Below are positions 775-38,691 of a stretch of 49,850 bases of DNA, piece by piece. Within the stretch, counting starts at the first letter, position 1. Each line of letters starts with the position of its first letter. The stretch covers positions 1 to 49,850 of the forward strand of contig CAZDAB010000001.1 in assembly GCA_964502855.1 (NCBI GenBank), given 5' to 3'. The notes beneath the pieces are model-generated. The model did not search any database. It saw nothing but the letters and a program-made list of their open reading frames with translations, and had not been told where the DNA came from. Made by a program: the position numbers and the translations under genes. This DNA comes from an uncultured Desulfobacteraceae bacterium (GTDB taxonomy: Bacteria; Desulfobacterota; Desulfobacteria; Desulfobacterales; UBA11574).

Positions 775-822
775 ATTCCGTAAAAGGAATTTTTAAAAAC
801 AGAGTTTTTCAACGTTATACCT

Positions 823-2816: not shown

Positions 2817-3080
2817 GACCGGTCCACTAGTAGAAATCCAAACAATAGTGTTCAATCTCCAATTTTTATATATTCAGCATTCAAAAAAACATGGTAGAAT
2901 GAAAACTTGATTTTTATGATATATTCTTGTATGTTAGTAGGCAATGGTAAATATTAGTAATAATCTCAGGCACATTAATATGGTAGAAGTCGCGGGGTCA
3001 AGACCGATCGTGCCTACCGGAGAAGTCAAGGGGTTGCGGTTACCGCCGTGACCTTTATTATTATTTGGGCCGCATTTATT

Positions 3081-3280: not shown

Positions 3281-3297
3281 ATCTTTCATTGCTAAAC

Positions 3298-4278: not shown

Positions 4279-4384
4279 CAATCTGTATTAATTCAGCCCG
4301 GTCACCGACTGAATGAATGGCAAAGCTTCAAATCCCAACGACGTTTTTGTTGCCCTTTCCGGGAAAGGTTAGGTGCTGTTTTTT

Positions 4385-5812
4385 ATGGTATTTTCAAGCA
4401 ATTTTTTTCTTTTCGCTTTTCTTCCTGCGGCAATCATTTGCTATTATGCACAGCGTCTGTTGTTCAACAACAGGCTGCGCAACGCCGTCCTTCTTGTATT
4501 CAGCTACCTGTTTTACCTTTATGGTGCGGCCGGTTTTCTCCTGATCCTCGTGCTTTCGACCCTTGCAGACTATTTGTTCGGTCTTCTCATTGACCGCGAC
4601 CGTTGCCGCAAGCGGTTATGGTTGAGTTTCTCGGTTCTTCTTAACATAGGGCTTTTGGCCTATTTTAAGTACGCAAATTTTTTTATCCTGGAACTGGGCG
4701 GAGCGTTACAATACTTGGGGTTTTCTCCGGCAGGATGGGAAAACGTCATCCTTCCCATTGGAATCTCATTTTTTACGTTTCAGAAGCTGAGTTACGTCAT
4801 TGATGTCTTTCGAGGAAAAAGCCGGGCACTTGTCAATGTCGTCGACTTTGCACTTTACGTGGCAATGTTTTCTCAGTTAATCGCAGGCCCGATCATCCGG
4901 TTTAAAGATATCAGAAGTCAGCTCAAAGATCGCAAAGAGTCTTGGGATCTATTCTATATGGGTACGATACGCTTCTGCTGGGGACTGTCAAAGAAAGTGA
5001 TTATCGCGGATTCCTGCGGCCGGATTGCCGACGTGGTCTTTGGCCTCGGCATGCCGTCACTTGACACAAAGACCGCCTGGCTCGGCTGCTTTGCCTACGG
5101 CCTCCAGATTTATGTCGATTTCTCCGCATATTCCGATATGGCTTTGGGACTGGGAATGTTGTTCGGATTTAAATTCCTGGAAAATTTCAACCTCCCCTAT
5201 TCGGCAATTAGCATCTCGGATTTCTGGCGGCGCTGGCATATATCCTTGAGCCAATGGTTTAAAGACTATCTATATGTCCCCCTGGGAGGCAATCGACAGG
5301 GAACTGTTAGAACCTATCTTAACCTGATGGCTGTTTTTATCTTATGCGGGATATGGCATGGTGCGAACTGGACGTTTCTCCTCTGGGGCCTTTACCACGG
5401 AGTGTTCTTGATGATCGAACGAGCCACCCGTCTGCGTGACATCTCTCCCCAAAGATATACATTTGTACGAAGAGCCGTCACCCTGTTCATTGTGATGGTG
5501 GGGTGGGTGTTGTTTCGTTCGGAGGATATTTTTCAGGCAAAAGATTTCCTGGAAGTGATGTTTACGCCAATCAACCTGCCGCTCTCATATGAACTCAGTC
5601 TGGCCTTGAACTATCGAAACGTTATTTTCATGCTGACAGCCGCAATTTCTTTCTTGCTGCCGGTCAGATTTTCAGGAACAGAGTTCTTAATGAGCCACAA
5701 GAGACCCATGTGGGTGATTGCGGGTCTAATTGCAATCCTGGTGCTGCTTCCATATAGCGCCGCTCTGATTGCCGGCGGTTCGAACACCCCCTTTATTTAC
5801 TACCGGTTCTGA
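4385..5812 (+). CDS. MBOAT-family membrane O-acyltransferase (AlgI/PatA/DltB-like)
   Basis: N-terminus MVFSSNFFLFAFLP is typical of AlgI-like MBOATs. Also present: FWRRWHISLSQWFKDYLYVPLGGNR and the catalytic-His region CGIWHGANW, with many TM helices. I prefer ATG 4385 over the tracked GTG 4373. Confidence 0.9.
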   Translation: MVFSSNFFLFAFLPAAIICYYAQRLLFNNRLRNAVLLVFSYLFYLYGAAGFLLILVLSTLADYLFGLLIDRDRCRKRLWLSFSVLLNIGLLAYFKYANFFILELGGALQYLGFSPAGWENVILPIGISFFTFQKLSYVIDVFRGKSRALVNVVDFALYVAMFSQLIAGPIIRFKDIRSQLKDRKESWDLFYMGTIRFCWGLSKKVIIADSCGRIADVVFGLGMPSLDTKTAWLGCFAYGLQIYVDFSAYSDMALGLGMLFGFKFLENFNLPYSAISISDFWRRWHISLSQWFKDYLYVPLGGNRQGTVRTYLNLMAVFILCGIWHGANWTFLLWGLYHGVFLMIERATRLRDISPQRYTFVRRAVTLFIVMVGWVLFRSEDIFQAKDFLEVMFTPINLPLSYELSLALNYRNVIFMLTAAISFLLPVRFSGTEFLMSHKRPMWVIAGLIAILVLLPYSAALIAGGSNTPFIYYRF

Positions 5813-5819
5813 GAAAAAC

Positions 5820-8753
5820 ATGAGAAAACTGCTTTCATTGATATTTGTCTTTCTTTTGCTTGCTCCGTTCGGGCTGCAGGTAACCGGACTAAATTTTTCC
5901 ACCCATGTGGATAAGCTGGGGATAAAACCGCCCCGGATTTGCAGGCAGGCTTTTTTAGACAATGACTACTACCGCTCTTTCGACGAGTATTTCAATGACA
6001 GCTTCTTACTTCGCGGGCCACTGATCCTTGCAAAAAACTGGCTCGACTACCATTTGTTCAGAACCACAGACTCCCGCGAGGTCCACATAGGAACTGATGG
6101 TTGGCTTTACGACGTTAAATCCATAAAAGACTATCGGAAAGAAGCATGCAATACCCAAGCATATGCCAAACAACTTGTCCTGGAGCTTCATGCTCTTGAA
6201 AAGATTATCCAAGCTTCGGGTCGCCGGTTCTTCTTCTCCATCGCCCCGAACAAGTCCACTATTTATCCGGAATTTGTGGGTTTTGTGTCCAAGGACAACC
6301 CGTGCGACAGCAGCCTGTATGACCTGTTTTTGGAAAACCTCACGTTACACCCGTTGAAAAGTTTTATGAGGCTTGACGCAACCCTAAAGGATGAAAAAAA
6401 GAAAGGTGCGCTGCTGTATGACAAGACAAGCACCCGGTGGAACAGCCTGGGCGCGATGGTTGCCGCAAAAATTATCTTCAAGGAAGTTCTTGACGGCCTG
6501 GGTGAGGCGCCCGCTATAGATTTCGCCTCCCCCGAACCTCTGGTCTACGGAGACCTGACCGGCAAACTCATGGGGCTTTCGGTTGTTGGTGAGGAGAACC
6601 TTATCAGACACTTCAGGAGGTTCGACCGGGCCGGTTTGCCTTCGGCGGTTGTTTATGGTGACTCCTTCATGTCGAATCTAATCCATTGCTTGGCGGATAA
6701 ATTTCAAAAGCTTGACATGATTTCGACGGACTGCATCCCGTCAAGAAAGCATGGGGAGAATTTGAAGTCGTACGACGTTATTCTGTTTGAGAGAGCCGAA
6801 TCCGAAATGGAAACCATACAGATTGAAATCGACAGAATTTTCTCCGCACTGGAGACCGAAGTACTATCCTTGGACCGGCGCCGTCTCGATCTTAAGGATG
6901 TATTACCGGTTTCTCAAATTTCTCTAAAAGCCCGAGTGGACGGTATGGCAATAAAGTCCGTGGGCACCGATTCCATTTTCAAATTTATCTCCGTTCCCGG
7001 TTCGAACCACGAGATCTTCAGAGTGCTAAAGCTCTCCATTGAATCCCCACACCCGGACATCATGACCATCAAGTACATGGCCGATCAGCCCCACGTGACG
7101 CAAAAACCTCTCAAAACCGGGGCCACGGAAGTCTATTTACCGCTACCCTTTTGGGACTCTATATGTCTGCGCATCAACCCGGGGAAAAAGGTAGGCTTCT
7201 TCATGCTGCGATCGGCAGAAATACTCGAATTTTTAAACACCCCTGATAGGATGTGCCCGGTCGGAGAAACGCCCGTCATGACCCTGGCCGAGCCGGAGGA
7301 GGGGGATACCTGCCCGCACAGCGGAGCAAATACGGACCGGGTGATCCCGGACACGGATACCGTCCCGCCGGTTGCTGTAAAAATTAGGCTGCATACAGAC
7401 GAGACCTCCGGGGAGATAATGCCGCGGGACGTGAAAGAATTTGCCGGAGAAAAATCTTCCATCGCCGTGACCGACTATGAAGACGGACGAATTTTTCAGC
7501 GCAACGGTAATAGCGGAGACATCGTTGTCTCGGGCACTTACACCGGCATGCCTGTGGCTGTAGAGGCCCGGGTGGTAAGGTCTGGCACCTCCGAGGAGAT
7601 CGTACCCTGGTCTGAGGTCGATGCATGCCCGAAAAACGGTATTTTTTTAGGGAAGCTTGCCGGTGTACCCCAGGGCGGTTGGTATAACATACAAGCCCGA
7701 AATAGTAAAAACCATGCTATCTCCAGTCGCGGATCGAACAGATGGGCCGTAGGGATACTTGTGGGGTGCATTGGTCAGTCCAACATGAAGGAATGGTTCC
7801 ATACGGGTACAAACGTCACGTCACATTCGCTAATCCGGAAACATACCGATAAGGGATGGTCCGAGCTGGGTATGAAAGGCAATGCGGCAATTGCTTTTGG
7901 AAACAGACTGATAGAGCGACTCAGCATACCTATCGGTCTTCTTGATTATTCCGTAAACGGATCCGGGTTGAGGAAAGAGGCGGACTGGGGCATGGACTAC
8001 TGGGAAAATACCCGGCCAGGCTCAATTTACAACCGCTTTCTGTCCGGCGTTTCAGCGGTAGGCGGCGACCTGGAGTATGTCATATGGATGCAGGGGGAAG
8101 CGGACGCCGCGCGCGGTACGGTCACCGAAGCCGAGTACACAGCTTCCCTCGAAAGTTTTATCACCCACCAGGTAAGGGCTGACATCGGCAACGGTTCAAA
8201 TCAGGCAAACCTGCCATTCCTCATCGTAATGATGATTAAACGGCCCGGGGGTAAAGACGCGCCGCACCAGGCAATACGCAACGCCCAGAAGCACGTTGCA
8301 GAGAATGTGCCCGATTGCTACCCGGCGGCTACGACCTTGGATCTCAAGAACCATGGCAGACAGCACTTGGCCCCGGATGCATATACCACCCTTGGACTCA
8401 GGGTCGCCCAAACGGTCTTATACATTTTGGGAAAGGAAAAGTATTACCGGGGTCCGCGGGTGGCTGCCGTAAATTCGGTAGACAGCCGCACTCTGGACGT
8501 GACCATACAGCACCGTGGCGGGACTGATTTTACACCGGTCCATGGGATTGCCGGATGGGAAGTCCTGGCAGGCGAAACTCTTTTACCTGTTTCGAAAGTG
8601 TACCGGCGTGATGCGGAAACCATCAGAATCATCCTTAAGAACACGGTTGCCCACAACACAAAAATCCGCTACCTGTATGGTGCAATGCCGGATACGAGTC
8701 GCCCAGTACTGGACAACTCCAAGATGTTGCTACCCCTGGAAGAATATCATTAG
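5820..8753 (+). CDS. large exported fusion protein: N-terminal AlgJ/AlgX-like SGNH domain, central unknown region, C-terminal SASA (sialate O-acetylesterase-like, GQSNM) domain
   Basis: Start at MRKLLSLIFVFLLLAPFG (signal-like), 8 nt after the MBOAT stop. AlgJ-like motifs HIGTDGWLYD, APNKSTIYPEF and TRWNSLGA. SASA motifs GCIGQSNMKEW and VIWMQGEADA. Confidence 0.75.
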   Translation: MRKLLSLIFVFLLLAPFGLQVTGLNFSTHVDKLGIKPPRICRQAFLDNDYYRSFDEYFNDSFLLRGPLILAKNWLDYHLFRTTDSREVHIGTDGWLYDVKSIKDYRKEACNTQAYAKQLVLELHALEKIIQASGRRFFFSIAPNKSTIYPEFVGFVSKDNPCDSSLYDLFLENLTLHPLKSFMRLDATLKDEKKKGALLYDKTSTRWNSLGAMVAAKIIFKEVLDGLGEAPAIDFASPEPLVYGDLTGKLMGLSVVGEENLIRHFRRFDRAGLPSAVVYGDSFMSNLIHCLADKFQKLDMISTDCIPSRKHGENLKSYDVILFERAESEMETIQIEIDRIFSALETEVLSLDRRRLDLKDVLPVSQISLKARVDGMAIKSVGTDSIFKFISVPGSNHEIFRVLKLSIESPHPDIMTIKYMADQPHVTQKPLKTGATEVYLPLPFWDSICLRINPGKKVGFFMLRSAEILEFLNTPDRMCPVGETPVMTLAEPEEGDTCPHSGANTDRVIPDTDTVPPVAVKIRLHTDETSGEIMPRDVKEFAGEKSSIAVTDYEDGRIFQRNGNSGDIVVSGTYTGMPVAVEARVVRSGTSEEIVPWSEVDACPKNGIFLGKLAGVPQGGWYNIQARNSKNHAISSRGSNRWAVGILVGCIGQSNMKEWFHTGTNVTSHSLIRKHTDKGWSELGMKGNAAIAFGNRLIERLSIPIGLLDYSVNGSGLRKEADWGMDYWENTRPGSIYNRFLSGVSAVGGDLEYVIWMQGEADAARGTVTEAEYTASLESFITHQVRADIGNGSNQANLPFLIVMMIKRPGGKDAPHQAIRNAQKHVAENVPDCYPAATTLDLKNHGRQHLAPDAYTTLGLRVAQTVLYILGKEKYYRGPRVAAVNSVDSRTLDVTIQHRGGTDFTPVHGIAGWEVLAGETLLPVSKVYRRDAETIRIILKNTVAHNTKIRYLYGAMPDTSRPVLDNSKMLLPLEEYH

Positions 8754-8760
8754 CCTTTGA

Positions 8761-10110
8761 TTACTTCATGCCCTTTTTTATACTTTCCAGTCTTTCCAAA
8801 AGCGTTTTGGCCTTTTCGATCTCTTTTTCTACATCTTTGTATTTAGGATCAATTGCACAAACGAGTTCCCATTCCCTGACGGCTTCAGCCAATTGCTGGT
8901 TTCCATAGTACGAGAGACCTCTGTTGTAATGGGTTTCCATGTAGATTTCGCCACTTTTCTTGATATAGTCCTGGCACTTCTCACAGTCCTTATTGTAACT
9001 CAAAGATGTTTCAAAGTTCTTTTTAGCTGCCAGATAATCTTCCTTTTCAAACAGGGATATCCCATACTGAAAGTGCGTGCTGTAAAGGTATTCACGGGCG
9101 GATTCGTCATCAGGATTCGCATTTAATACTTTATTGAATTCGACAATAGCGGACGGGTATTCTTTATTATTAAAGTATTCAATACCCAGAGCTCGATAGT
9201 CTGCCGCTTCATCAATGCGCTCTTCCTCTTCCACGCCTTCATCCTTTTTTTCTTCCTCCTCCAAAAGGACGGATTCCGGCGCCTTAACCTCTTCGGTCTT
9301 GATCTCATGTTTTGATGCTAAAAATGGCATTCCCTCTATTTCAGGAACTTTTATTTTTTGCCCCACCTCTATCTGGGTTACATCGGACATGTTATTAAAT
9401 TCAGCTATGATCGGAAACTTTTTATAGTCCCCGTAATATGTCTTAGCTACCATTGAAAGGCTTTCGCCCGGTTTGATTGTGTGAATAATATACTTTTTAC
9501 CCGTCTCAATTTCCTGTTTTTTCGTTAATAAGGGCATTCCCTCTATTTCAGGAACTTTTATTTTTTGCCCCACCTCTATCCGGGTTGCATCGGACATGTT
9601 ATTAAATTTAGCTATAATCGGAAACTTTTTATAATCCCCGTAATATATCTTAGCTACCATTGAAAGGCTTTCGCCCGGTTTTATTGTGTGAATAATATAT
9701 TTCTCTGCGGGGATCTCTGCCCTGGGCTTGATCGCTCTCAAAGCTTCTAAATGATCCGGCTGAAGTTCCAATGTTGTTAAGAACTCTTTACGAGCCAATT
9801 GATATTTCCCCTTTTTGCGTAAATTTAACCCTTCCTGATAGTGTTTTTCCGCCAATATTCGCATATTTTTTTCAAGCAGGTCTTTTTTCTCTATCGCCTC
9901 CTTGTTCTTGGGGTCAACAGTAAGCGCCAGTTTATACTGCTTCAAGGCGGGCACCAGATCGCCTTTGTTTTCATAATCCTGCCCGGTTCGAATATAAGTC
10001 TGAACCAGTTCTTGCTTTTGAGATCCAGTGAGTTTTTCTTTAATCCCGGCACATCCCCCTATCATTACCCCTATCAACACCCCTAAGATAAATATTCTGA
10101 TTTTTTTCAT
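8761..10110 (-). CDS. lipoprotein with TPR repeats flanking two tandem LysM domains
   Basis: Lipobox MIGGCAG. Two near-identical LysM modules (YIIHTIKPGESLSMVAK.YYGDYKKFPIIA.FNNMSD...IEVGQKIKVPEIEGMP). TPR-like repeats at both ends. Confidence 0.8.
   Translation of the reverse strand: MKKIRIFILGVLIGVMIGGCAGIKEKLTGSQKQELVQTYIRTGQDYENKGDLVPALKQYKLALTVDPKNKEAIEKKDLLEKNMRILAEKHYQEGLNLRKKGKYQLARKEFLTTLELQPDHLEALRAIKPRAEIPAEKYIIHTIKPGESLSMVAKIYYGDYKKFPIIAKFNNMSDATRIEVGQKIKVPEIEGMPLLTKKQEIETGKKYIIHTIKPGESLSMVAKTYYGDYKKFPIIAEFNNMSDVTQIEVGQKIKVPEIEGMPFLASKHEIKTEEVKAPESVLLEEEEKKDEGVEEEERIDEAADYRALGIEYFNNKEYPSAIVEFNKVLNANPDDESAREYLYSTHFQYGISLFEKEDYLAAKKNFETSLSYNKDCEKCQDYIKKSGEIYMETHYNRGLSYYGNQQLAEAVREWELVCAIDPKYKDVEKEIEKAKTLLERLESIKKGMK
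9326..9701. repeat. near-identical tandem duplication (207-bp period, ~169 bp conserved per copy) inside the LysM lipoprotein gene
   Basis: ggcattccctctatttcaggaacttttattttttgccccacctctatc... occurs at 9326 and again at 9533. Only a handful of mismatches are seen across each copy. Confidence 0.9.
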
Positions 10111-10117
10111 AATGATC

Positions 10118-11134
10118 TCACTTTAATGAAATTTTATGGAAACTTTTCAAAACGGAAACAAAAGTCTTCATATCCCTTTTCAATATCTGGGTCCTCCTCA
10201 AGGTAAGCGGATCGGCAAAAAATGGGTTGCTCCCCTTTTTTACCGTCACCGCAACCCGATAACCTAAGCGTCTGGTTATTTCTAACACATTTTGATTGTG
10301 TCGTCCATAAGGAAAAGCCAGAAAAATGGTATTTTGTTTCAGCTTCTTATCGATGATCTGTTTGGATACACGGAGTTCCTTTTCAATCCTATCCATAAAC
10401 GCCGAGGTATCTTCGCCTTCCTTCTGCCGGGTGAGGTCGCTGTGAAATACCGTATGTCCACCAATCTCAAAACCGTCTGCTTTCATTATACCGAGTTGCT
10501 TCCAGGTCAGGGAGTTTTTGCATGCATTTATGAAGTCGGTATAAATAAACAATGTGGCATGAAAACCATATTTTTTCAGAATAGGGTAACAAACATCATA
10601 GACGGATCTATAACCATCATCAATGGATATAATCACCGCCTTTTTGGGAATGGCATGACGATATTCAAGAAAATCAATAAGTTGTCTAAAGCTTATGACT
10701 CTGTAGCCATTTTCATAGAGGTATTTCATCTGTTGTTCAAAAATATGGGCAGGCATGCAAAGCGGAGATCTACAATCGTTTGCAAAACGGTGGTAACAAA
10801 GAATAGGAACAACCTGAAATCCATTCGCCGTTAGTCCCCCTATATTTGTCTCTTTGAGGGGAATAATAATCATCTTATTTTTTTCAAAAGAAACATCCTC
10901 ATTGGCGTCCTCTATTACCCAGAATTTTTTTCTATCCCCGAGATATTTTTCAGCCAGTGTTTCCGGCGTTTCTTTATCTTGGAGTTGACAAATAATATAG
11001 TCATTAGATTGAAAAATACCGGCAGTTTTAGCAGTTTTAAAAGTGGCACAGGAGATAAAGAAAAACCATCCAACTGTGCATATAAACAAGGTAATTACTG
11101 AACGTTTAAGTCTGTTAGCCCTCAAACCTTTCAA
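10118..11134 (-). CDS. polysaccharide deacetylase (CE4/NodB-type, PgaB-like) lipoprotein with an N-terminal LysM-like segment
   Basis: CE4 motifs ISIDDGYRSVYD, ATLFIYTDF, IGGHTVFHSDL and AFPYGRHN. TTG start preceded by GGAGGA. Lipobox-like FFISCAT. Confidence 0.85.
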   Translation of the reverse strand: MKGLRANRLKRSVITLFICTVGWFFFISCATFKTAKTAGIFQSNDYIICQLQDKETPETLAEKYLGDRKKFWVIEDANEDVSFEKNKMIIIPLKETNIGGLTANGFQVVPILCYHRFANDCRSPLCMPAHIFEQQMKYLYENGYRVISFRQLIDFLEYRHAIPKKAVIISIDDGYRSVYDVCYPILKKYGFHATLFIYTDFINACKNSLTWKQLGIMKADGFEIGGHTVFHSDLTRQKEGEDTSAFMDRIEKELRVSKQIIDKKLKQNTIFLAFPYGRHNQNVLEITRRLGYRVAVTVKKGSNPFFADPLTLRRTQILKRDMKTFVSVLKSFHKISLK

Positions 11135-11201
11135 AAGATATCCTCCGGTAAAAACATCCGTGTAAATGAATTAAAAAAATAGCAGTCGTTCACGGGGCAA
11201 T

Positions 11202-13175
11202 CTACCAAATATGAATTTTATCCCCTATTTTTGATAGGTTGTCAATGTTTTCTCTTAATTTATCGTCCGGCTTTATCGGCCGTCTCTGGTTTTTAATATG
11301 TCCGTAACTGAATTCAGGCTCTATCTTTACCACATGAACCTGAGCAATAACCGAGGGATCAGGCTGAAAACTTTTCCCCTTATATACAACCGGAGCACTT
11401 TCCTCGATAACATTAAATATCGTACCGGTAACCACCCCTTCACGAGCGCCGAGATTAACAAGAACCTGGTGACCGGAAACCTCGACCACATAAGCCTGCA
11501 TGGGATAATGCAAAATAATGTTGGTAAGAATCTCACGATTTAGCCAGTGCATATCTTTTTTTACCGTTATCTCGGAAGAAAATTGCCGGGTAATTACGTT
11601 GGATTTCTCTGACCTATCCGTATCCATCATGTTTATTTTTAAAAGCGGTCCACCGGGAAGATAATAAACAGACCCTTTGACAAGAAGTGTTGCACCCAGT
11701 GCTCTGGCCAGTCTTAACGTGGTTTCTTTGTCCGCCAGATCCTTTTGATCAAGTCCCAGCGCTTTAACTAAGCGCTCAACCAGGATTCTGCCAACGACTT
11801 GTACCCTCCCGGATGCCTCAAGCTGACGGGTAAGCTGTGCAGAGATTACCGCAACAAATCCGTCTCTTTCAGCCAAGCCGCCCGTTTCCATAAAATCAAA
11901 AAATGACAGTATAACGGCCCGGGATGTCCACGAGTCTTCACCGGAAACATCCTCTTTGATCCCACCGTTATATCTGGCAACCAGTTCTTTGACTTTATCA
12001 TCCAGCATTCTCTTTTTTTCAAGATCCTTTTCGATAAGAAGTCTTTTCTGGGCATTGTCGGCAAGAACCGTTGCGAAAGGATCATTGGGGTCAACGGCCT
12101 GAGCTTTGCGATAGGCTTCAAGTGCCTTTTCCCAATTTCCCTCCCTTTCATAGGTCAATCCCTTGTTTGAGGTGGCCTCAATATAATACGGGTCGATGGC
12201 AACAGCCTGATCATACAACTCCCGAGATTTTTTGTAGTTTCCGCGACCGGCATGGATCCGCCCCAGCTGATTGTATGCCACCGCACTCTGGTAGGGTTCC
12301 GATCCCTTTTTCCGAACAGCTTTTTTATATTCATCCTCAGCTTCCTTGACCTTATTCTGGCGGTATAAAAGATTTCCTTTAACCACATGGACCTGTGCTC
12401 TGTCAGCGGCCTTTTCCTCGACCTCCCTTGCCACCTTAAGCGCTTTTTCAGTTTGTCCTTTTTTAGCATAAACCGTGGATAGCCCTTCTTTTCCCAGAAC
12501 CTCCGCCTCTCCCTTTTTTCTGGAAAGATTGTAAAACGTTTTTTCTGCCTCATCCAACTTTCCCTCTTTCAGTTCCGCATACCCCTGTACGGTTTTAGCC
12601 CTTACGTTTTTCGGATTCTTTTTCACCACTTTTTCGCTGATTGCCAGGGCTATTTTCGTCTGCTTTCGCTGCAGTTTGCGTTCGGCCAGCTTTACCAGCA
12701 TAACCTCAGTGGTTCTGCCGCCGCCTTGAAAATAATCGAGCAGTTTTAAATCGGGCCCTAAAATGCAAATCGTCGGAAGAATCAGCCGGGCATGATAAAG
12801 ATCACTCACTCCTGACGAGTCGATCAGAACCGGAAAAGACGGCTGAAGGGTTGCTATAAATTTATTGACCTTATTTGTTGAAGACCGTGTCACTCCCCAT
12901 ACCATCAAGTCGGCATCTTTGTATTGTTTTGACAGTTGATCGATATTCAACAGGCCTTCCTGGCTGGGCCTTGAGTCAACATCAAAAAAATAAATGATGA
13001 CCATGGGCTGATTTTTCATACTTGACAAATCATAATTTTTTCCCTTTACATCTTTCAGCGAAAACAAGGGAACATGCTGACCCCCCGGAAGCTGGCTGTA
13101 ACAAATACCGGCTGTTGCGACCAGAAAAATCGCTGAAATGAAAAAACAACAAAATATTCTTAATACCGGTTTCAT
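11202..13175 (-). CDS. exported multi-domain protein: thioredoxin/TlpA-like fold lacking the CxxC, then TPR repeats, then a C-terminal region of unassigned fold
   Basis: Signal-like N-terminus. TlpA/redoxin-like layout (PLFSLKDVKGKNYDLSS...PMVIIYFFDVDSRPSQEG...FPVLIDSSG) with SRPS where WCxxC is expected. Multiple TPR-like repeats. Strong RBS GAGGAGGAAG. Confidence 0.7.
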   Translation of the reverse strand: MKPVLRIFCCFFISAIFLVATAGICYSQLPGGQHVPLFSLKDVKGKNYDLSSMKNQPMVIIYFFDVDSRPSQEGLLNIDQLSKQYKDADLMVWGVTRSSTNKVNKFIATLQPSFPVLIDSSGVSDLYHARLILPTICILGPDLKLLDYFQGGGRTTEVMLVKLAERKLQRKQTKIALAISEKVVKKNPKNVRAKTVQGYAELKEGKLDEAEKTFYNLSRKKGEAEVLGKEGLSTVYAKKGQTEKALKVAREVEEKAADRAQVHVVKGNLLYRQNKVKEAEDEYKKAVRKKGSEPYQSAVAYNQLGRIHAGRGNYKKSRELYDQAVAIDPYYIEATSNKGLTYEREGNWEKALEAYRKAQAVDPNDPFATVLADNAQKRLLIEKDLEKKRMLDDKVKELVARYNGGIKEDVSGEDSWTSRAVILSFFDFMETGGLAERDGFVAVISAQLTRQLEASGRVQVVGRILVERLVKALGLDQKDLADKETTLRLARALGATLLVKGSVYYLPGGPLLKINMMDTDRSEKSNVITRQFSSEITVKKDMHWLNREILTNIILHYPMQAYVVEVSGHQVLVNLGAREGVVTGTIFNVIEESAPVVYKGKSFQPDPSVIAQVHVVKIEPEFSYGHIKNQRRPIKPDDKLRENIDNLSKIGDKIHIW

Positions 13176-13204
13176 GACACTTCCTCCTCAATCTTCACAC
13201 GATG

Positions 13205-19335: not shown

Positions 19336-20853
19336 TCAGCCTTGTAATCTCGCTTTTTCCGAAGCCAGTGGATTATCAAAATTATATCCGAACAGACGGG
19401 GATTTTCACCGATGACTGCGGCAGAGAAAATCGAAAAAACGTAATCATACGTTTGGGCGGGGATCTTATCGCGGTATTGGGAAATCAATTGCCAGAAATT
19501 TCTTTCACGCGGATTTTCGGGCATGGACTCAATCAGTTTAATCACCCGATCTTCGCCCCAATTGTAGGATGCCATTACAAGCAGCCCGGAAGCCTGGGCG
19601 TCCGTGGTATAAATATCCTTCAAGTACCTCGCGGCGGCCAGGGTTGATTTTCTAAAATCGTGGCGGTCATCATCAGGGTCGGGAATGGGTTTGTCGACCA
19701 GGGAGCCCGTATTCAAGTCATATGCCTCGGCGGTTGAAGGGATAAACTGCCACATCCCCTTGGCGATGCCGAACCGAGTTTCCGGGCCGCAGGCATTGGG
19801 GTTTAAATTGCTTTCTTGAAGGGCCAGATAAAAAAATTGCGGCGGCAGGTTATACATAGAAAGGGTCTGAACGATTGTAGGAATGTAACCTCTTGACCTT
19901 GCCCGTTTGATCGCTTGTTCCAGACGGTGGTTTGATTTCCATTTCTCGACATATTTCATGACTTCTTTGACAAATCCTTCGGGCATATTGACTTCACACT
20001 CCCCAAACCGGCGCGACACGTGCAAAATGATCCGCTCCTCCTCACTCAACCCTTTGCGGTACACGTTAAGCGTATCCACAAACCGGTCATAATTTCGTTC
20101 CAATTGCTGTTGTTTGGCCCTGAATTCTTTAATTTGCTTTTTAGACTCGGCGGTCCGGCGCTTTTTGACATCTTTTATCACCTTTCCTACCTCAATTTCC
20201 AGAGTCTTCATGTTGTAGAAAATATCAGCAGCCAGCTCGCGCTGCTGGCGCACTTGTCTATGTTTGTAAACGGCATAACCGCCGGTCAGGATGCACAAAA
20301 CCGCAATAACCGAAATAATTGAGACATACATCCACCGCTGTTTTTTTTTGACCTCGGCATAGGCTCGGCGCACCATCAGAGTATGTTCGCCAGCAGTATC
20401 ATCTGCTGTCTGGCCGAAGTAATGCTCTTTGTAGTCGCTGATCGTTCGGGAATCGGAAACAGGGGATTCGGGAACAGAGGGTTCGAGAACAGGAGGTTCG
20501 GAAACAGGAGGTTCGGAAACAGGGGGTTCTTGCAGCACGGCTTTTTCAAGTTCAAATATAAGGCCAGGCCCGGAAATACCCAAGCGGACGCGGATAGTAC
20601 CGGATAGCGGAAACCGGTCAATTTTGCGGTCTTCGATAAACACCCCGTTACCACTTTCCAGATCTTGAATCCACCAGCGGCCGTCTTCTTTAAACACATC
20701 CGCATGATACCGGCTGACCCCTTTGTTTTTGATCTGCAACTGACAGCTTGAATGCCTTCCGATGCGAAACCGATCTGTAAAAACAAATTCAGTGACAGCA
20801 GCCAATCCGCTTTCAATTCTAACCTTCAGTGTCGGGGCGTCGGAAGATCCCAT
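19336..20853 (-). CDS. FHA domain - single TM helix - SLT-type lytic transglycosylase fusion protein
   Basis: N-terminal FHA (FRIGRHSSCQLQIKNKGVSRYHADVFKEDGRWWIQDLESGNGVFIEDRKI). TM helix WMYVSIISVIAVLCILTGGYAVY. C-terminal SLT motifs LALQESNLNPNA, GIAKGMWQFIPSTA and MASYNWGEDRV. Confidence 0.85.
   Translation of the reverse strand: MGSSDAPTLKVRIESGLAAVTEFVFTDRFRIGRHSSCQLQIKNKGVSRYHADVFKEDGRWWIQDLESGNGVFIEDRKIDRFPLSGTIRVRLGISGPGLIFELEKAVLQEPPVSEPPVSEPPVLEPSVPESPVSDSRTISDYKEHYFGQTADDTAGEHTLMVRRAYAEVKKKQRWMYVSIISVIAVLCILTGGYAVYKHRQVRQQRELAADIFYNMKTLEIEVGKVIKDVKKRRTAESKKQIKEFRAKQQQLERNYDRFVDTLNVYRKGLSEEERIILHVSRRFGECEVNMPEGFVKEVMKYVEKWKSNHRLEQAIKRARSRGYIPTIVQTLSMYNLPPQFFYLALQESNLNPNACGPETRFGIAKGMWQFIPSTAEAYDLNTGSLVDKPIPDPDDDRHDFRKSTLAAARYLKDIYTTDAQASGLLVMASYNWGEDRVIKLIESMPENPRERNFWQLISQYRDKIPAQTYDYVFSIFSAAVIGENPRLFGYNFDNPLASEKARLQG
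20451..20529. repeat. in-frame 15-bp tandem repeat (~5.3 copies) encoding (E)PPVS repeats in the FHA-SLT linker
   Basis: Units aatcggaaacagggg / attcgggaacagagg / gttcgagaacaggag / gttcggaaacaggag / gttcggaaacagggg. Protein: EPPVSEPPVSEPPVLEPSVPESPVSD. Confidence 0.85.
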
Positions 20854-21043: not shown

Positions 21044-21415
21044 TCAGGGGATATCGGTGGTCATCTGCCCCGGAAAAGTGATGGAGATTACGCCACCCCA
21101 TGTGCACATGCACTTGCTCGTGTCATTCAGGGCCGGCGTGTTGCCAATGAGTACGGTCGGTGAACCGGCCGCCCAGGGCGTGGCGGTCACCGGCATGCAT
21201 GGCACCGGCACCCCCAGCGCCGCTATCACGGCCGGGTTCGTGGGGGCGGAGCACATTCCGAATGGCAGAATGTTGACCACAGGGATGTAATCCATTATGT
21301 TTGCCGCAGGCTGGTTATTCACCATCACCCGGTTGACCGGCAGAACAATTAGGGACGCCGGGGCCACACCAAAGCTACACTGCATCATGGCCCCATTAAC
21401 TACCTGTTTTGGCAT
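21044..21415 (-). CDS. DUF4280 (PAAR-like) spike-tip domain protein
   Basis: MPKQVVNGAMMQCSFGVAPASLIVLP... and a C-terminal SKCMCTWGGVISI are typical of DUF4280. RBS GGAAGGAG. Located in the vgrG-adaptor neighbourhood. Confidence 0.85.
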   Translation of the reverse strand: MPKQVVNGAMMQCSFGVAPASLIVLPVNRVMVNNQPAANIMDYIPVVNILPFGMCSAPTNPAVIAALGVPVPCMPVTATPWAAGSPTVLIGNTPALNDTSKCMCTWGGVISITFPGQMTTDIP

Positions 21416-22227: not shown

Positions 22228-24306
22228 TCATGTTTCACAGAACGGCGTTCCGGATTGTGCCGCCTGATTGAAGGTTAGCGCCTGCGGGGTAAGCTCTGTT
22301 GCCTCAACCTCCGCCGGGGTTAAGCTCGGCAGTTCCGATGTTCTACCGGGTTCGGTCGTATCCGCCTCTTCCGGTTCATCGGGTGAGGCAGGGGAACACC
22401 CGGAACCGGAACCCGCAGACCCGCCGCTGTTGATCATGACCATAGCTCCCGATATGCTGACGCCGGAAGGACCAATATCTATAAAACTGCCGGAGGCTTT
22501 CAATGACACCTGCATGCCGGCTTCTATAACCACCTTAGAACCGCCTTTAATGTGGACATCCCCGTACGCATCAAGCGCATAATTCCCTCCCGCCTTTTCC
22601 AGTATGTCACCGGATTCACTCTGAATAGAAATCGTACCTGATACTTTTTCCTTATGATCCCCACTCACCGTCAGGTTCTTATCTCCATCCACCTTTTCAA
22701 GCTGGTTTTCCGTTATGATCAGGTGGCGGCTTTCGCCCACAAATTCACGGCATTTATCTTTTGCCCGGGTATCCAGCGTTTTTTCCGCTTGAATGAAAAG
22801 CTGTTCCTCGCCGGCTTTATCCTCGAACCGAATTTCATTGACTCCGCCGGTGTCCGGGACAGACATGCTTTTTATGGTTGATCGGGTCTTTTGGTCAGGC
22901 AAAGAATAAGGCGGCGTGTTGCTGCTGTTATAAACACAGCCTGTGATAATGGGCCTGTCAGGATCACTTTCAAGAAAACCCACGATCACTTCATGGCCGA
23001 TGCGGGGAAGAAATAGGGTCCCCCATCCTGCTCCGGCCCAGCTCTGGCTTACGCGAACCCAGCAGGAACTTTTCTCATTGTACTGCCTTGCCCGGTCCCA
23101 GTGGAACTGGACCTTGACCCTCCCATATCCCTCATCATCCGTATGGATTTGTTCTCCTTCGGGGCCCACGACAATAGCCGTCTGAACGCCGGCGATCATG
23201 GGTTTGGGTGTAATTAAGGACGGCCGGTATGGGACATCATGAGGGACACATGTAAAACTGTTGCCATACGTATAAGATGATTGCCCCTCCTGCCCGGAAC
23301 TTCCCGCAGTCTCAGAGGCCCTATGATTTACGCCAGTAATCACATAGGTATGGTCATTTAGTTCATCCCGAAAATGACCGGCAAGATCATACTTGTACCC
23401 GCCTGAGAAGCCTGTGCAGGTACTTGCCCCCGCAAAGGATGTCGTTCGCACCTCCTCTGCCTGCATGCGTATATTGGCCAGTCTTTCCCCCTCGGCTCGT
23501 GTCTTGTATTCTGCCGGGAAATCATATACTTCGCGCTCCCCCGGACCCAGGGGAGTTTGGCAGTTAACCCCAACCATCAAATCCGTATTCGGCGTATCCG
23601 GATTAAAGTCATTTACGGTGTATTTCCCGATTCTGATCTCCTGCCTCTTATCAAGATCGGTTATGACATCGTCCGGGGGTGTTCCTCCCACGCTTAGGGG
23701 ATGAAGCCGAACCGGCTCCGCATAAGGACAATCCGGGTGTTTATCCGGGGCATCCCCTAAAACCATGGTATGCTTCGCGTTTTCGTGTTGGAAAAAATAG
23801 AATATTCCCTCCTGCTCCAGGAGCCTGGAGACAAAATTAAAATCCGTTTCAGCGTACTGAACGCAGTATTCCTTTGGCTCGTAGCTGCCCAGATCCATCC
23901 TGAAGTCGGTAAATCCCTTTTCAGTAAAGACCTGTTCCACGATTTCAGGAACGGTTTTTTCCTGAAATACTCTCGAATTGGTCGTCTTGGTAAGCAGCCA
24001 GAACCACGGAACCAGTGTTGCCGAATAACGCGCCAGGCCAGAGTCCCCGGCGCCGCTATCTTGAGAAAAACGCGATATTAAACCGTTAAAAAATCGCGCA
24101 GTGCCCTCTTCTGTTCCAATGGCAACCGTAACATTTCCTCCGATAATCTGGTCAAATGCAATGCGACTGTTTTCTGACACAAGGCTCATTTCAAAGGAAA
24201 AAGGAACACAAAGTCCTTCGTTTCCCGAAAACCTCGTGAGCAACACAACATCATCACCCAGCGGTGTAGCAATGCGCAGCATTCGATTTTCTTGTGTAAG
24301 CGTCAT
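22228..24306 (-). CDS. vgrG: T6SS spike protein VgrG (TssI)
   Basis: gp27-like N-terminus (LRIATPLGDDVVLLTRFSGNEGLCVPFSFEMSL). gp5 OB region (WVRVSQSWAGAGWGTLFLPRIGHEVIVGFLESDPDRPIITGCVYN). Beta-helix repeats. C-terminal acidic/Pro tail ending AAQSGTPFCET. Confidence 0.95.
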   Translation of the reverse strand: MTLTQENRMLRIATPLGDDVVLLTRFSGNEGLCVPFSFEMSLVSENSRIAFDQIIGGNVTVAIGTEEGTARFFNGLISRFSQDSGAGDSGLARYSATLVPWFWLLTKTTNSRVFQEKTVPEIVEQVFTEKGFTDFRMDLGSYEPKEYCVQYAETDFNFVSRLLEQEGIFYFFQHENAKHTMVLGDAPDKHPDCPYAEPVRLHPLSVGGTPPDDVITDLDKRQEIRIGKYTVNDFNPDTPNTDLMVGVNCQTPLGPGEREVYDFPAEYKTRAEGERLANIRMQAEEVRTTSFAGASTCTGFSGGYKYDLAGHFRDELNDHTYVITGVNHRASETAGSSGQEGQSSYTYGNSFTCVPHDVPYRPSLITPKPMIAGVQTAIVVGPEGEQIHTDDEGYGRVKVQFHWDRARQYNEKSSCWVRVSQSWAGAGWGTLFLPRIGHEVIVGFLESDPDRPIITGCVYNSSNTPPYSLPDQKTRSTIKSMSVPDTGGVNEIRFEDKAGEEQLFIQAEKTLDTRAKDKCREFVGESRHLIITENQLEKVDGDKNLTVSGDHKEKVSGTISIQSESGDILEKAGGNYALDAYGDVHIKGGSKVVIEAGMQVSLKASGSFIDIGPSGVSISGAMVMINSGGSAGSGSGCSPASPDEPEEADTTEPGRTSELPSLTPAEVEATELTPQALTFNQAAQSGTPFCET

Positions 24307-24476: not shown

Positions 24477-26045
24477 TTACACCCATGGTCCTGAGAGCTG
24501 CGTCAAAGGATCAGCCACAGATTGAAAACGCGCCAGACGGACAGTGTCCCGGTTTTTATATGAAAGAAGGGGCATTATCCCCAGGTCCAGAATCCTTTGC
24601 ATGGCCTTTTCCGTAAATACCACTTCTGCGCAGGGCTTGATCACGGATTCACCCTGTTCTTTATAGACGTGCAGGGGCAACCCTCCGATATCCTGAATCA
24701 CTCCGGGCCGAAGGTTCCAGCCGTAACGGCTGAATGCCTGTGCCAAAAGCAGAGCGCACGCAAAAGACGGATTCCCCCACAGGTAATTTTCGTGGGCCGA
24801 ACCTTCCGGCATCTCTTCAAAATCAAAATAATTCACGGGATCAGAAGCCTCTCCATAGGGGAGACGCAAAAGGAATCGCGGCAGAACAAGCCCCAGATAC
24901 GTAACATCGGGAAACCCCCTAAGCGCTTCCCATGCCTGACGGTCTTTTGCATCAACAGATCTCTTCCAGTCGTCAGAATCAGGGGTGTGAGCCAGGGAGT
25001 CACAGCCCAGGAAATGATCGTGGGCCGCGGTAATAAACGGGGCACCAGCAAGTCGCGCAATAATGGCCATGCGGCCCAGGATTTCTGCATCCTCGCGGGT
25101 TTTATCAAAGCTATAGTTACCCGCCAGCATGGCCCACGGCTCACCGCCCGGAATTCCGGTTGCCTGCTCCACAAAGAGTCTGTATGTCCCGGTTGTCTCA
25201 AGGTCATCCGACGCCCTCAGGTCGGCGGCTAGTTCGTCCTTGGATATGTCCATCAGATATACGTTGAGCAGAGCATCCGTCTCCACCCTGTTTACGAGAA
25301 AACGGAGGGCCCGCCATGCCGACTCAATGGCCTGAAAATCGGGATGATGCAAAATGGTTTGCATAAGTCCGGAGATAGAGGCATCAACCGCCGCCACCAG
25401 CTCCTCTTGCTCAGGGTCATCGCCCGGGACCAGGTGAGGGCCCACGATCTTCTGCAGGAATGCATCCCATTCCGAGGGTTGGGATACGGTTCTTGTGTCC
25501 GGCCGACGGCCTTCTGCTTCACCGACGATCTGATCGAGGAGGCTGCCCGAAACTTGACCGGACGACGCGGGTTTGGGAGGGGGCTGTTTTAAGGCGGGCC
25601 CCGGAGGTTCCGAAGTCTCGTCCGCTCCCATCCAGCTTTGAATCTCTTTTTTGGCAGACGCGTATGTGCGAAGATCATTGAGTCTTTTTCGAGTTTCCCT
25701 CAGTGTCTGGAACACGTCAAGACGCGCATATAACTGTTCGGGATGAAAATCATCCAGTTCTTGGAACCGGATGACCACGGGAGGTCCGGACTCATCCGCA
25801 AGGGATAACTGTACGTTAACACCAAGCTTTTTCATCACATCCTCGATGTTATCCCGGTCTATTTTTATGGGACGTGGCTTCTCAAATGCGGAGCCCGGAT
25901 CCACAATGCCTCGGTTGGAACGACCGCTGAAATCTCCCAGGACACAGATCCGAAACGGCGTCTCAGGTTCCGGCCGGCTTCGGGTTTCATCCATGGATGA
26001 GACCACCTTGAAATCAAGCGCTTCAAATGAAATGGGCTTTGACAT
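24477..26045 (-). CDS. single-chain TssB-like / TssC-like fused sheath paralogue that lacks the TssC C-terminal region
   Basis: The N-terminal third aligns to the canonical TssB of this locus: PFRICVLGDFSG/PFVVGVLGDLSG, IKIDRDNIEDV/VEIDRDNFDNV, IRFQELDDFHPEQ/LRFKSIDDFHPER, RKRLNDL/RKRLSDL. A Pro-rich linker follows. The remainder aligns to the canonical TssC: SLLDQIV/SLLDQIL, HHPDFQAIESAWRALRFLV/HHPDFQKLEGSWRGLKYLV, LPRFLLRLPYG/LPHILMRLPYG, NYLWGNPSFA/KYLWGNAAYA. I prefer start ATG 26045 (RBS GAGAGGTG) over the tracked 26144. Confidence 0.8.
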   Translation of the reverse strand: MSKPISFEALDFKVVSSMDETRSRPEPETPFRICVLGDFSGRSNRGIVDPGSAFEKPRPIKIDRDNIEDVMKKLGVNVQLSLADESGPPVVIRFQELDDFHPEQLYARLDVFQTLRETRKRLNDLRTYASAKKEIQSWMGADETSEPPGPALKQPPPKPASSGQVSGSLLDQIVGEAEGRRPDTRTVSQPSEWDAFLQKIVGPHLVPGDDPEQEELVAAVDASISGLMQTILHHPDFQAIESAWRALRFLVNRVETDALLNVYLMDISKDELAADLRASDDLETTGTYRLFVEQATGIPGGEPWAMLAGNYSFDKTREDAEILGRMAIIARLAGAPFITAAHDHFLGCDSLAHTPDSDDWKRSVDAKDRQAWEALRGFPDVTYLGLVLPRFLLRLPYGEASDPVNYFDFEEMPEGSAHENYLWGNPSFACALLLAQAFSRYGWNLRPGVIQDIGGLPLHVYKEQGESVIKPCAEVVFTEKAMQRILDLGIMPLLSYKNRDTVRLARFQSVADPLTQLSGPWV

Positions 26046-26189
26046 GGCAACACCTCTCAATGCGAAGAGAATATGCATTAATCCCCACATTAAATTTAAT
26101 CTTTTCATTGAATATATGGCCGTAAGCCCTATAATATCTTGCAAAACCCGGCCACTTATTATGTCCCATCCGAGTCGCCCCCTTCGTAG

Positions 26190-35932: not shown

Positions 35933-36457
35933 TTATTCGCTTTCTTCCCCTTCCGATTTTTTAACACCCACCTCGGACCCGAGTTTTTCCAGTGAATCAG
36001 TGCTTGAGATAACATCCTGAAGCAATTCATCCAGTTTGTCGTTCCCGTCGAGTTTATTGAGCAAATCGGAAAGCCGTTTTCTGGCATCTACCAGTTTGCG
36101 CACCGGTGTGATTTGTTCCGCAACACGCTCAGGGTGAAAATCATCTATGGATTTAAACCGAAGTTCTACAGCCATTTTCGTGTCATCATCCGTTAGCTTG
36201 TTGTCAGCCCTGAAGGCCAGTCTGGGTTTCATACCGGCAAGCACATTGTCAAAATTGTCCCTGTCAATCTCAACGAATTTTCTGTCCTTGAGTTTGGGTA
36301 AGGGTTCATCGGGTTTGCCGGACAGGTCACCCAGGACACCAACGACAAAAGGAATTTCCTTCATTTCAATGGCGTCACCCACCTCCACGTCATAGGTTAT
36401 CTGAACCCTGGGGGCCCTTACCCGGTCGAGGGTATGTTGTAAACTCTCCTTAGCCAT
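35933..36457 (-). CDS. tssB: T6SS contractile sheath small subunit TssB (VipA)
   Basis: RVQITYDVEVGDAIEMKEIPFVVGVLGDLSG and FKSIDDFHPERV are TssB hallmarks. RBS AAGGAG. Confidence 0.95.
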   Translation of the reverse strand: MAKESLQHTLDRVRAPRVQITYDVEVGDAIEMKEIPFVVGVLGDLSGKPDEPLPKLKDRKFVEIDRDNFDNVLAGMKPRLAFRADNKLTDDDTKMAVELRFKSIDDFHPERVAEQITPVRKLVDARKRLSDLLNKLDGNDKLDELLQDVISSTDSLEKLGSEVGVKKSEGEESE

Positions 36458-37881: not shown

Positions 37882-38691
37882 TTACTCCGATTGATTTGGC
37901 TTAAAAACGGCTTCTTCGATTTCCAGAATTCCGATTTCTTTCTCACCGACCTGGAAAACATGCTGTCCCACGCCTTGGTAAAAACCTTGGCCCAGATCCA
38001 TCCAATCCGTCATGCGCCCCCGCTTCAGCCGATCATCTTCATGGCGAAACGACTCCGGGTAAAGCACCGGCAGAAAGCAGTTTAAGGTCAGCCCATCCCG
38101 GGTGGTAATTTGTGCCGAGGTCCACAAAAGATCCAAAAACGTTTTGGGCCTGGGAACACACAGCTCCCGGAGGAATTCAAAGGGCAACCAGACATATCGT
38201 TCATGAACAAACACCTCCAGAAAACAGGATAGTCGGGTGTCCGTATCCCGAAACCCATTAAAATCTTTGCCGTTCAGCGTTCCCGAGACGGGCGGGCGTT
38301 GGGTGTGGATCTCCTGGAATATGGTTTGGGCGGCCTGGAACTGCTGGTTATCCAGTTTTTGACAGGCGGTTTTATACTGCTCTATATAGGCTGGAGATTT
38401 CGGCAAAAAATCGGGTTGTCCTTGGTTTTGCGTAACTTGGATCCGTTCGATTTCGGCCTGAATCAGGTTCAGATAAACCTGGACCCCGGCCTGCCGGGTC
38501 GCGTCCTGGGCAGCGATAATCTCAAGATGGCGTCGGGCTTTGTCCCATTCGCCCAGATAAGCCAGAACCTGAAACAAAAGCGTGCGACTGCTCTGGTCGC
38601 CGGGTGAAGATTTAACCGCCTCGACCAATTGACTGCGGGCGTCTGAAAGCTTACCGTCCTGAATAAGGTCCTTGATATTCATTTTAATCAA
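37882..38691 (-). CDS. tagJ: T6SS accessory protein TagJ (ImpE/SciE family)
   Basis: N-terminus LIQDGKLSDARSQLVEAVKSSPGDQSSRTLLFQVLAYLGEWDKARRHLEIIA matches the ImpE TPR-like pattern; ~270 aa. Confidence 0.8.
   Translation of the reverse strand: MIKMNIKDLIQDGKLSDARSQLVEAVKSSPGDQSSRTLLFQVLAYLGEWDKARRHLEIIAAQDATRQAGVQVYLNLIQAEIERIQVTQNQGQPDFLPKSPAYIEQYKTACQKLDNQQFQAAQTIFQEIHTQRPPVSGTLNGKDFNGFRDTDTRLSCFLEVFVHERYVWLPFEFLRELCVPRPKTFLDLLWTSAQITTRDGLTLNCFLPVLYPESFRHEDDRLKRGRMTDWMDLGQGFYQGVGQHVFQVGEKEIGILEIEEAVFKPNQSE

Follow-up and report, generated by a model that had tools for sequence, protein, structure and literature searches.

Within the 49,850-nucleotide stretch of DNA analysed here (the window), which comes from an uncultured Desulfobacteraceae bacterium and carries a complete type VI secretion system (T6SS) on its minus strand, the gene at 24477..26045 (-) encodes a single polypeptide in which a TssB-like module is joined through a linker to the N-terminal part of a TssC-like protein. 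Judged by its sequence, this fusion represents a widespread, unnamed family of T6SS accessory proteins derived from sheath subunits. Tentatively, and with doubt slightly outweighing belief, it is taken to be a conserved accessory component of this T6SS type. The function that we favour, somewhat short of thinking it probable, is that of a ClpV-addressable protomer mimic, which would dock at an open handshake site, either at the sheath's distal end or on TssE.

The coding sequence specifies 522 residues and a stop. A longer TTG-initiated frame is also present in the list of open reading frames (ORFs); the ATG at 26045 is preferred as the likely start because a Shine-Dalgarno-like GAGAGGTG (26051..26058 (-), read straight from the sequence) precedes it by 5 nt and because the product then begins with MSKPISF like the other family members, whose N-terminus, MSKPISFG, agrees with this start in sequence comparison. 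The frame ends in a clean TAA, which is followed by a 170-bp AT-rich intergenic spacer containing no leftover sheath coding sequence and then by vgrG (22228..24306 (-); Phage_GPD, Phage_base_V and Gp5_trimer_C domains), which lies directly downstream.

Both sheath families are found in the one chain by profile search, as the original prediction had anticipated. T6SS_VipA (PF05591) occupies residues 25-137 (25635..25973 (-)), covers profile positions 22-135 of 155 and scores 63.7 bits against a cut-off of 24; VipB (PF05943), the N-terminal or middle-layer domain of TssC, occupies residues 215-510 (24516..25403 (-)), covers positions 2-300 of 301 and scores 248 bits. The Pfam scan gave no match to VipB_2 (PF18945), the gp25-like C-terminal domain. 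BLASTP agrees on this TssB-linker-TssC(N) arrangement: residues 28-125 align with residues 34-132 of the local TssB (34% identity, E 2e-14), and residues 168-513 with residues 24-375 of the local TssC (29% identity, E 4e-57). TssB/VipA chains in the PDB are matched by the first module, and the best Foldseek matches of the predicted structure are TssC chains (5n8n_B, 3j9g and 5urx, from the sheaths of P. aeruginosa, V. cholerae and M. xanthus; E down to 3e-18). The NCBIfam equivalog models give 57.9 bits for TIGR03358 (TssB; cut-off 97.25) and 253.7 bits for TIGR03355 (TssC; below the cut-off of 271.5), and the latter alignment extends no further than model position 351 of 473.

The TssB-like first part, the Pro-rich linker and the pairing of SLLDQIV in the fusion with SLLDQIL in canonical TssC are as first described. 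The loss of the TssC C-terminus also stands, although its size, put at ~115 residues, comes to ~124 (residues 376-499 of the local TssC). Canonical sheath genes are present at the same locus, again as predicted: Pfam and NCBIfam assign tssB to 35933..36457 (-) (full VipA domain, PF05591 201 bits; TIGR03358 199 bits) and tssC to 34423..35922 (-) (VipB and, at residues 383-493, VipB_2; TIGR03355 736 bits).

The gp25-like inner domain of the sheath is its Hcp-facing layer. In T6SS sheaths, the handshake sheet of this domain is built from TssC beta11 and beta12, a beta13 donor strand from a neighbouring TssC and a beta1 donor strand from a neighbouring TssB (PMC5807055). Both sheath linkers reach the ring nearer the baseplate, and the gp25-like protein TssE has been proposed as acceptor for the first ring (PMC5813253); linker length governs contraction (PMC5797969). 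It had been claimed for VipA/VipB-type sheaths that the termini of both subunits supply the strands that mesh the sheath. This is correct for the N-terminus of TssB and the C-terminus of TssC, which donate, but not for all four termini (PMC5813253, PMC5807055). The fusion lacks the domain that holds both acceptor strands and the TssC donor, and keeps the heterodimer core together with an arm in the TssB position. HsiC1 without its C-terminal part still binds HsiB1, whereas tubules are not formed (PMC3597794). As the handshake acceptors and the TssC donor are absent, the fusion should be unable to form or extend a sheath.

The family is defined here as TssB-TssC(N) fusions without a gp25-like domain, ~480-540 residues in length, or longer where a C-terminal extension is present. 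A word-indexed search listed 120 relatives of 484-537 residues, with 54-96% identity and all with the same two Pfam domains. An exhaustive profile search covered 1.84 billion representatives; of the best 150 clusters (50% identity) that it listed, nearly every one aligns over the full family profile, with 480-540 residues, and the 150th scores 483 bits. As canonical TssC chains in the PDB reach at most 275 bits with this profile, far below the 150th cluster, the family is larger than the clusters listed. When an aligned set of the N-terminal 232 residues served as query against one genome from each species, the fusion was confirmed in at least 525 species genomes. The orthologous fusions for which the original prediction had suggested a search thus exist with the same architecture, and the gene is no peculiarity of the window locus.

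Members occur in Desulfobacterota, Planctomycetota (Brocadia, Pirellulales, Phycisphaerae), Nitrospirota, Acidobacteriota, Methylomirabilis, Bacteriovoracaceae and Binatus, and in complete genomes including those of Desulfosarcina alkanivorans PL12 and Ca. Brocadia pituitae. Plasmid-borne copies, annotated as 'contractile sheath large subunit', are found in Leisingera, Phaeobacter, Ruegeria, Parasedimentitalea and Eleftheria terrae. In Pfam searches of five distant members (Brocadia, Desulfosarcina, Methylomirabilis, Pyrinomonadaceae and Leisingera), VipA and VipB without VipB_2 were found in every one. The plasmid copy of Leisingera caerulea (L085:13989-15770) is 593 residues long, with an additional C-terminal extension of ~115 residues that has no Pfam match; its host is cultivable and the arrangement, clpV followed at a distance by fusion-vgrG, is as in the window. 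The fusion also appears in bins labelled Bacteroidales (L015) and Promethearchaeota (L019), only on contigs of 5.4 and 2.8 kb, respectively, which are probably mis-binned.

An origin of the window gene by chimeric assembly or by decay of a duplicated tssB-tssC pair is almost certainly wrong, and is ruled out, to the extent that sequence data can tell, by orthologues of identical architecture in complete genomes and on plasmids. The intact architecture in so many species, the conservation of N- and C-terminal motifs, and the good ribosome-binding site and clean stop of the window gene all speak against it. In its favour, one relative (L040:9639-11240) has an in-frame stop directly after DLLDQII and a scrambled C-terminus, which point either to gene damage or to faulty sequencing of a metagenome-assembled genome. 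This copy was considered as a natural unfused version of the protein and rejected, as it shows an in-frame stop and a damaged end rather than a true split.

Conservation was judged over 74 aligned family members from several phyla, and the window protein has all the family features, i.e., the length class, the N-terminal arm, the LLDQ(I/V) helix and the RFQS..P...L.G.W C-terminus, which it has in common with these 74 members and with nearly all of the best 150 representative clusters. The arm (residues 1-22, MSKPISFEALDFKVVSSMDETR, 25980..26045 (-)) is conserved in these members with the consensus MxKPISFGxLDFxIVxS, i.e., with alternating hydrophobic residues and constant spacing to the PFRIxxLGDFSGR core. 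The arm occupies the place that the beta1 donor strand has in TssB (PMC5807055), and the N-terminus of the fusion may therefore act as a donor arm. In the AlphaFold2 model, the predicted local distance difference test score (pLDDT) of the arm is <50, as would be expected for an arm that becomes ordered only on a partner. The TssB-like strands and the DDFHP helix region are conserved across the family, as are the IVxPHLVP motif and the core motifs of the TssC middle domain (HHPDFQ, AWR, GAPF, PRFLLRLPYG and YLWGN). The linker (residues 138-165, 25551..25634 (-)) is rich in Pro, Glu and Ser, varies in length and sequence among members (column conservation ~0.2) and is predicted to be disordered (pLDDT ~30).

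The chain closes with a family-specific tail (residues 503-522, RLARFQSVADPLTQLSGPWV, 24480..24539 (-); pLDDT <50), which ends where canonical TssC enters the gp25-like domain. In nearly all 74 sequences, the motif RLxRFQSxAxPxxxLxGRW is followed by 0-5 residues to the end of the protein. Because nearly every family protein ends within five residues of this conserved tail, the truncation point itself is a selected feature.

The LLDEII motif of VipB binds the N-domain of ClpV and accompanies ClpVs with aliphatic groove residues (PMC4239648). The equivalent of this ClpV-binding N-terminal helix of TssC/VipB in the fusion (residues 166-179, VSGSLLDQIVGEAE, 25509..25550 (-)) contains SLLDQIV (residues 168-174), which aligns with GSLLDEIMAQT of V. 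cholerae VipB, and the form (G/S)SLLDQ(I/V)LEET is kept in nearly all family members. The earlier suggestion that the fusion retains a helix of the ClpV-binding type is supported, and the LLDxI motif is family-wide. The helix is likely exposed, as it is adjacent to the predicted-disordered linker. ClpV of the window (27639..30272 (-), also termed tssH; AAA_2, AAA_lid_9 and ClpB_D2-small domains in Pfam) has the N-terminus MAVSNLKSLIGKL with Leu6 and Ile10; the ClpVs of the window and related loci begin with MxxSNLKSLIGKL (Leu6, Ile10) and have TPAL near position 87, matching the V. cholerae class. The interpretation first given is partly supported: these features are read most economically as pointing to a role that does not propagate the sheath, is tied to its ends or involves ClpV, and the idea of capping or of a decoy seems a reasonable one.

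Divergence within the family was compared over 15-16 loci with complete genes. Pairwise identities are 49-51% for the fusion, compared with 80% for TssC, 73-74% for ClpV, 63% for TssF, 55% for TssG, 51% for TssE and 44% for Hcp. The fusion therefore diverges far faster than TssC, which fits release from the constraints of the sheath lattice. Its identity to canonical TssC is 28.5% and does not rise within the same locus. On these comparisons, the fusion is an ancient paralogue, released from the constraints on a polymerising subunit and still under selection at its motifs. Canonical TssC is ~80% identical across loci of Desulfobacterota, Brocadia, Methylomirabilis and Nitrospirota (L014, L018, L021, L023, L029, L031, L036 and others); such cross-phylum identity is unusually high and suggests horizontal spread of this T6SS type.

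In Desulfobacterota, Nitrospirota, Brocadia and the Roseobacter plasmids, the genes run tssA-B-C-hcp-E-F-G-clpV-[variable genes]-fusion-vgrG; many Acidobacteriota have the fusion upstream of tssB-tssC-hcp-tagJ-tssA; and in six long loci it lies amid housekeeping genes. Detection used the proteins of the window as queries, and all context counts are lower bounds. Another T6SS core gene is present within 10 kb of the fusion in 38 of the 44 loci with long flanks, and canonical tssB and/or tssC were detected in 33 fusion loci; among the loci examined, there is no cluster in which the fusion substitutes for canonical tssB/tssC. The gene clpV is within 5 kb upstream in 32/56 loci, and vgrG within 2.5 kb downstream in 24/61. 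Linkage to vgrG, to which the original prediction drew attention, is thus not a family trait, given also the Acidobacteriota, where the gene is upstream of tssB or alone; the link is incidental. An obligatory partner gene between clpV and the fusion was also sought and rejected, because all-against-all BLAST of the upstream ORFs gave only small unrelated families, of which the largest is present in 11/84 loci; the DUF4157 protein of the window clusters with none.

For the preferred protomer mimic, the following mechanism can be proposed. The fusion would be a single-chain pseudo-protomer built of the middle and outer layers of the sheath, in which the flexible linker tethers the two halves so that they pair with each other and do not exchange with canonical subunits. 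The N-terminal arm would insert into a vacant handshake site, and such sites would exist only at the ends of the polymer. If this occurred at the last distal ring, growth would stop, as no acceptor would be offered to a next ring, and the protein would act as a chain terminator or cap. Alternatively, docking could take place on TssE in the baseplate (33319..33801 (-), gp25-like, PF04965), a candidate acceptor for the arm. ClpV would then recognise and remove the docked fusion via the LLDEII-type helix. Docking at the handshake site, the capping effect and ClpV binding are all deduced from sequence features and from the known architecture of the sheath. That the family constitutes a new class of T6SS accessories, either ClpV-removable sheath terminators (end-caps) or protomers of a 'ring zero' that complete TssE, which govern how long sheaths become, how they are initiated or how long they dwell in the T6SSs of Desulfobacterota, Acidobacteriota, Planctomycetota, Nitrospirota and Roseobacter plasmids, is possible but rather doubtful.

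Several points weigh against this mechanism. The arm of the fusion (ISFGxLDFxIV) is dissimilar to the canonical TssB arm RAPRVQITYDVE, with which it has only position and a strand-like pattern in common, and its target may therefore not be the canonical slot. In a protein devoid of the inner domain, a single arm together with middle-layer contacts may not suffice to keep it on a sheath end. The AlphaFold2 model is only moderate (pLDDT 66, predicted template modelling score 0.68): the TssB-like and TssC-like cores are confident, whereas arm, linker, helix and tail are of low confidence. Mirror-tree correlations with the fusion are weak and unstable (TssF 0.60, TssE 0.57, ClpV 0.51-0.71, TssC 0.12-0.42), with a ranking that shifts with the locus set. 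Lastly, VipB K223, which is required for assembly in V. cholerae (PMC5797969), corresponds to Ala371 in the fusion, although P. aeruginosa TssC1 likewise has no Lys there. VipB D333 (PMC5797969) corresponds to Glu479, which is nearly invariant in the family; because of the same lack of Lys in P. aeruginosa TssC1, the mapping of these two residues is uninformative.

Other functions would use the same features differently. The fusion might be a ClpV-directed regulator or adaptor, soluble or at the baseplate, whose helix binds the ClpV N-domain without docking at a handshake site; it would then buffer ClpV as a decoy, tether ClpV in advance close to the machine, or be a constitutive substrate of ClpV. 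The helix is conserved across phyla beside a disordered linker, the local ClpVs have groove residues like those of V. cholerae (PMC4239648), and clpV is frequently nearby, as counted above; at one locus (L004), the order is clpV-X-fusion and the only other nearby T6SS gene is a vgrG ~10 kb downstream. However, a decoy would need the helix alone, yet the domain-2 core, the N-terminal arm and the C-terminal tail are conserved too, and canonical TssC already has the same motif. The identity-matrix correlation with ClpV is 0.71 in one locus set but only 0.51 in a second, and in Acidobacteriota the gene is not beside clpV. Such a regulator is on the whole unlikely, without being far-fetched. Less likely still is a 'ring zero' in which the fusion and TssE, a lone gp25-like domain, make up a complete pseudo-protomer at the baseplate: the C-terminal tail and/or the arm would dock on TssE, and native-like middle and outer contacts would be offered to the first true ring, making the fusion an initiator or stabiliser. 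Its domain content is exactly complementary to that of TssE, the chain stops at the entry of TssC to the gp25-like domain with a conserved Trp-ending tail, its identity (49%) resembles those of TssE (51%) and TssG (55%) rather than that of TssC (80%), and in one locus set the correlations with TssE (0.57) and TssF (0.60) are the highest. In addition, TssE has been proposed as acceptor of sheath linkers (PMC5813253), and stabilisers on the baseplate side of the sheath exist, TagB and TagJ having been proposed as such (PMC10433429). On the other hand, the middle and outer domains would probably clash for space with first-ring protomers on TssE, well-studied T6SSs start sheaths without such a protein, and the correlations, from 15 loci, are weak.

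VipA/VipB tubules form spontaneously, and ClpV prevents non-productive tubules. A cytosolic holdase or quality-control factor that caps free TssB-TssC or off-pathway tubules via the handshake slot and passes the complexes to ClpV would thus fit the donor-only architecture and the ClpV motif; we consider it improbable, as a subunit this abundant could be capped stoichiometrically only at high cost, and sequence cannot tell a holdase from an end-cap. An adaptor or chaperone linked to VgrG or effectors is suggested by the position directly upstream of vgrG in the window and at 24/61 loci, and by the variation of effector-like genes around the fusion. That adjacency is missing from most loci, Acidobacteriota and others have the gene by itself or upstream of tssB, adjacent cargo genes change around a conserved family, and the protein has no similarity to known adaptor families, Pfam giving only VipA and VipB. 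Such a role therefore has very little likelihood.

The T6SS gene set of the window consists of tssJ, tssK, tssL, tssM, tagF, tagJ, tssA, tssB, tssC, hcp, tssE, tssF, tssG and clpV, followed by an eCIS_core/DUF4157 gene, the fusion, vgrG, a DUF4123 gene, a PAAR-like ORF and a gene for an FHA-SLT protein. We take this order to resemble that of the H1-type cluster of P. aeruginosa, except that a variable gene and the fusion separate clpV from vgrG. A further gene of the set has a weak, sub-threshold match to the C-terminal domain of a T6SS FHA protein, and genes for Ser/Thr kinases and a PP2C phosphatase lie downstream of the set. Scanning 21.5-30.5 kb for promoters and terminators gave chance-level counts. 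The gene for TagJ is at 37882..38691 (-), and its product resembles HsiE1 of P. aeruginosa (E 5e-40) much more than it does VPA1032. The possibility that TagJ binds the invariant Ser-Phe N-terminus of the fusion, in analogy with HsiE1-HsiB1 (PMC4239648), is unsupported, as the HsiB1-binding pocket residues are replaced: where HsiE1 has F154, W171 and P181, the TagJ of the window has H, G and C. Lys9/Phe10 are missing from the local TssB.

The variable slot between clpV and the fusion (26190..27482 (-)) encodes a 430-residue protein with eCIS_core/DUF4157 (PF13699) at residues 66-142 and a C-terminal region of ~290 residues without a Pfam match; it may be a T6SS cargo with an N-terminal domain of the type found in extracellular contractile injection systems (eCIS). 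The ORF at 21044-21415 (-), after the DUF4123 gene, encodes a Cys/Gly-rich protein of 123 residues that, judged by eye, resembles a DUF4280/PAAR-like spike tip. At 19336-20853 (-), FHA and SLT lytic transglycosylase domains are combined in one protein, homologues of which are encoded close to the fusion gene in five other loci (L027, L029, L044, L053 and L056); this suggests a link between peptidoglycan remodelling and the Thr-phosphorylation pathway in T6SSs of this type. The T6SS operon is headed by a 764-residue ORF without a Pfam match (46316-48610 (-)). The genes in 1-13200 of the window are unrelated to T6SS and include those for an ion channel, a trypsin-like protease, a LysM-TPR protein, a polysaccharide deacetylase and an AhpC-TPR protein, as well as those for MBOAT and an AlgX/SASA-type acetyl-esterase (polysaccharide O-acetylation).

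How sheaths start, stop and are held before firing is only partly understood, and the known helpers TssA, TagA, TagB and TagJ are missing from many lineages. If the fusion acts as a protomer mimic, sheath control by subunit mimicry would be a mechanism not known in model T6SSs, and would follow a simple physical principle, i.e., a copy of the subunit that has lost the propagation domain and retains the disassembly tag. Hundreds of environmental species carry the gene, and as cultivable ones are among them, namely Leisingera and Phaeobacter with their plasmid T6SS as well as Desulfosarcina alkanivorans, the idea is testable. The family also matters for annotation. Its public labels are generic ('ImpC', 'sheath large subunit', 'TssC1 N-terminal domain-containing protein', 'hypothetical'), and those naming a 'sheath large subunit' or 'ImpC' inflate counts of tssC and can mislead T6SS typing. 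No description of the fusion was found in the full-text literature searched, which includes a 2023 T6SS review, a 2009 genomic survey and a 2026 survey of plasmid T6SSs and covers few subscription journals.

The fusion would share the concept of a specialised sheath-family or cap protein confined to one end of a contractile tail with eCIS and phages, which have terminal-ring sheath paralogues (Afp4/Pvc4-type) that keep the handshake domain and caps (Afp16/gp15-type) that have unrelated folds; neither kind is known in T6SS. With canonical TssB/TssC (VipA/VipB, HsiB1/HsiC1), the fusion shares homology of both halves, the predicted fold, the LLDEII-type helix, an arm in the TssB position and a place in T6SS clusters. 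Unlike that pair, it is one polypeptide: canonical TssB is a free-standing protein of ~170 residues, whereas the TssB-like part of the fusion is covalently joined to the TssC-like part. Canonical TssC has PF18945, which the fusion does not, so that the fusion has neither acceptor strands nor the TssC donor strand; it also falls under the NCBIfam equivalog cut-offs and evolves much faster than the canonical pair.

TagA, TagB and TagJ are likewise lineage-restricted accessories, acting in sheath assembly or stability and in ClpV recruitment (PMC10433429, PMC4239648), which is the niche proposed for the fusion. They have no sequence relation to it, and the signature domains of TagA (ImpA_N) and TagJ (ImpE) are absent from the fusion in the Pfam scan, which finds VipA and VipB only. 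TssE, like the fusion, is a partial protomer mimic that joins the handshake without polymerising (PMC5813253), but TssE is the inner domain only, an acceptor, whereas the fusion is all but the inner domain and could offer no more than a donor arm. Among described cases, TssC40 (ImpD, Atu4340) of Agrobacterium comes closest, a second TssC in the imp-type cluster of A. tumefaciens that is needed for Hcp secretion by a mechanism that is not known (PMC3702570). Like the fusion, it is encoded next to canonical tssB-tssC in a cluster that includes TagJ, as an additional sheath paralogue that is not redundant. A TssC40 homologue on the Rhizobium etli plasmid pRetIE4771d (L086:11115-12503, 462 residues) is 32% identical to the fusion by BLASTP, within the VipB domain only. 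In Pfam terms, this homologue is unfused and keeps both VipB and VipB_2, and its N-terminus is shorter by ~60 residues, a stretch to which the ClpV helix belongs. As this homologue is N-terminally shortened with VipB_2 kept, its truncation is the opposite of that in the fusion.

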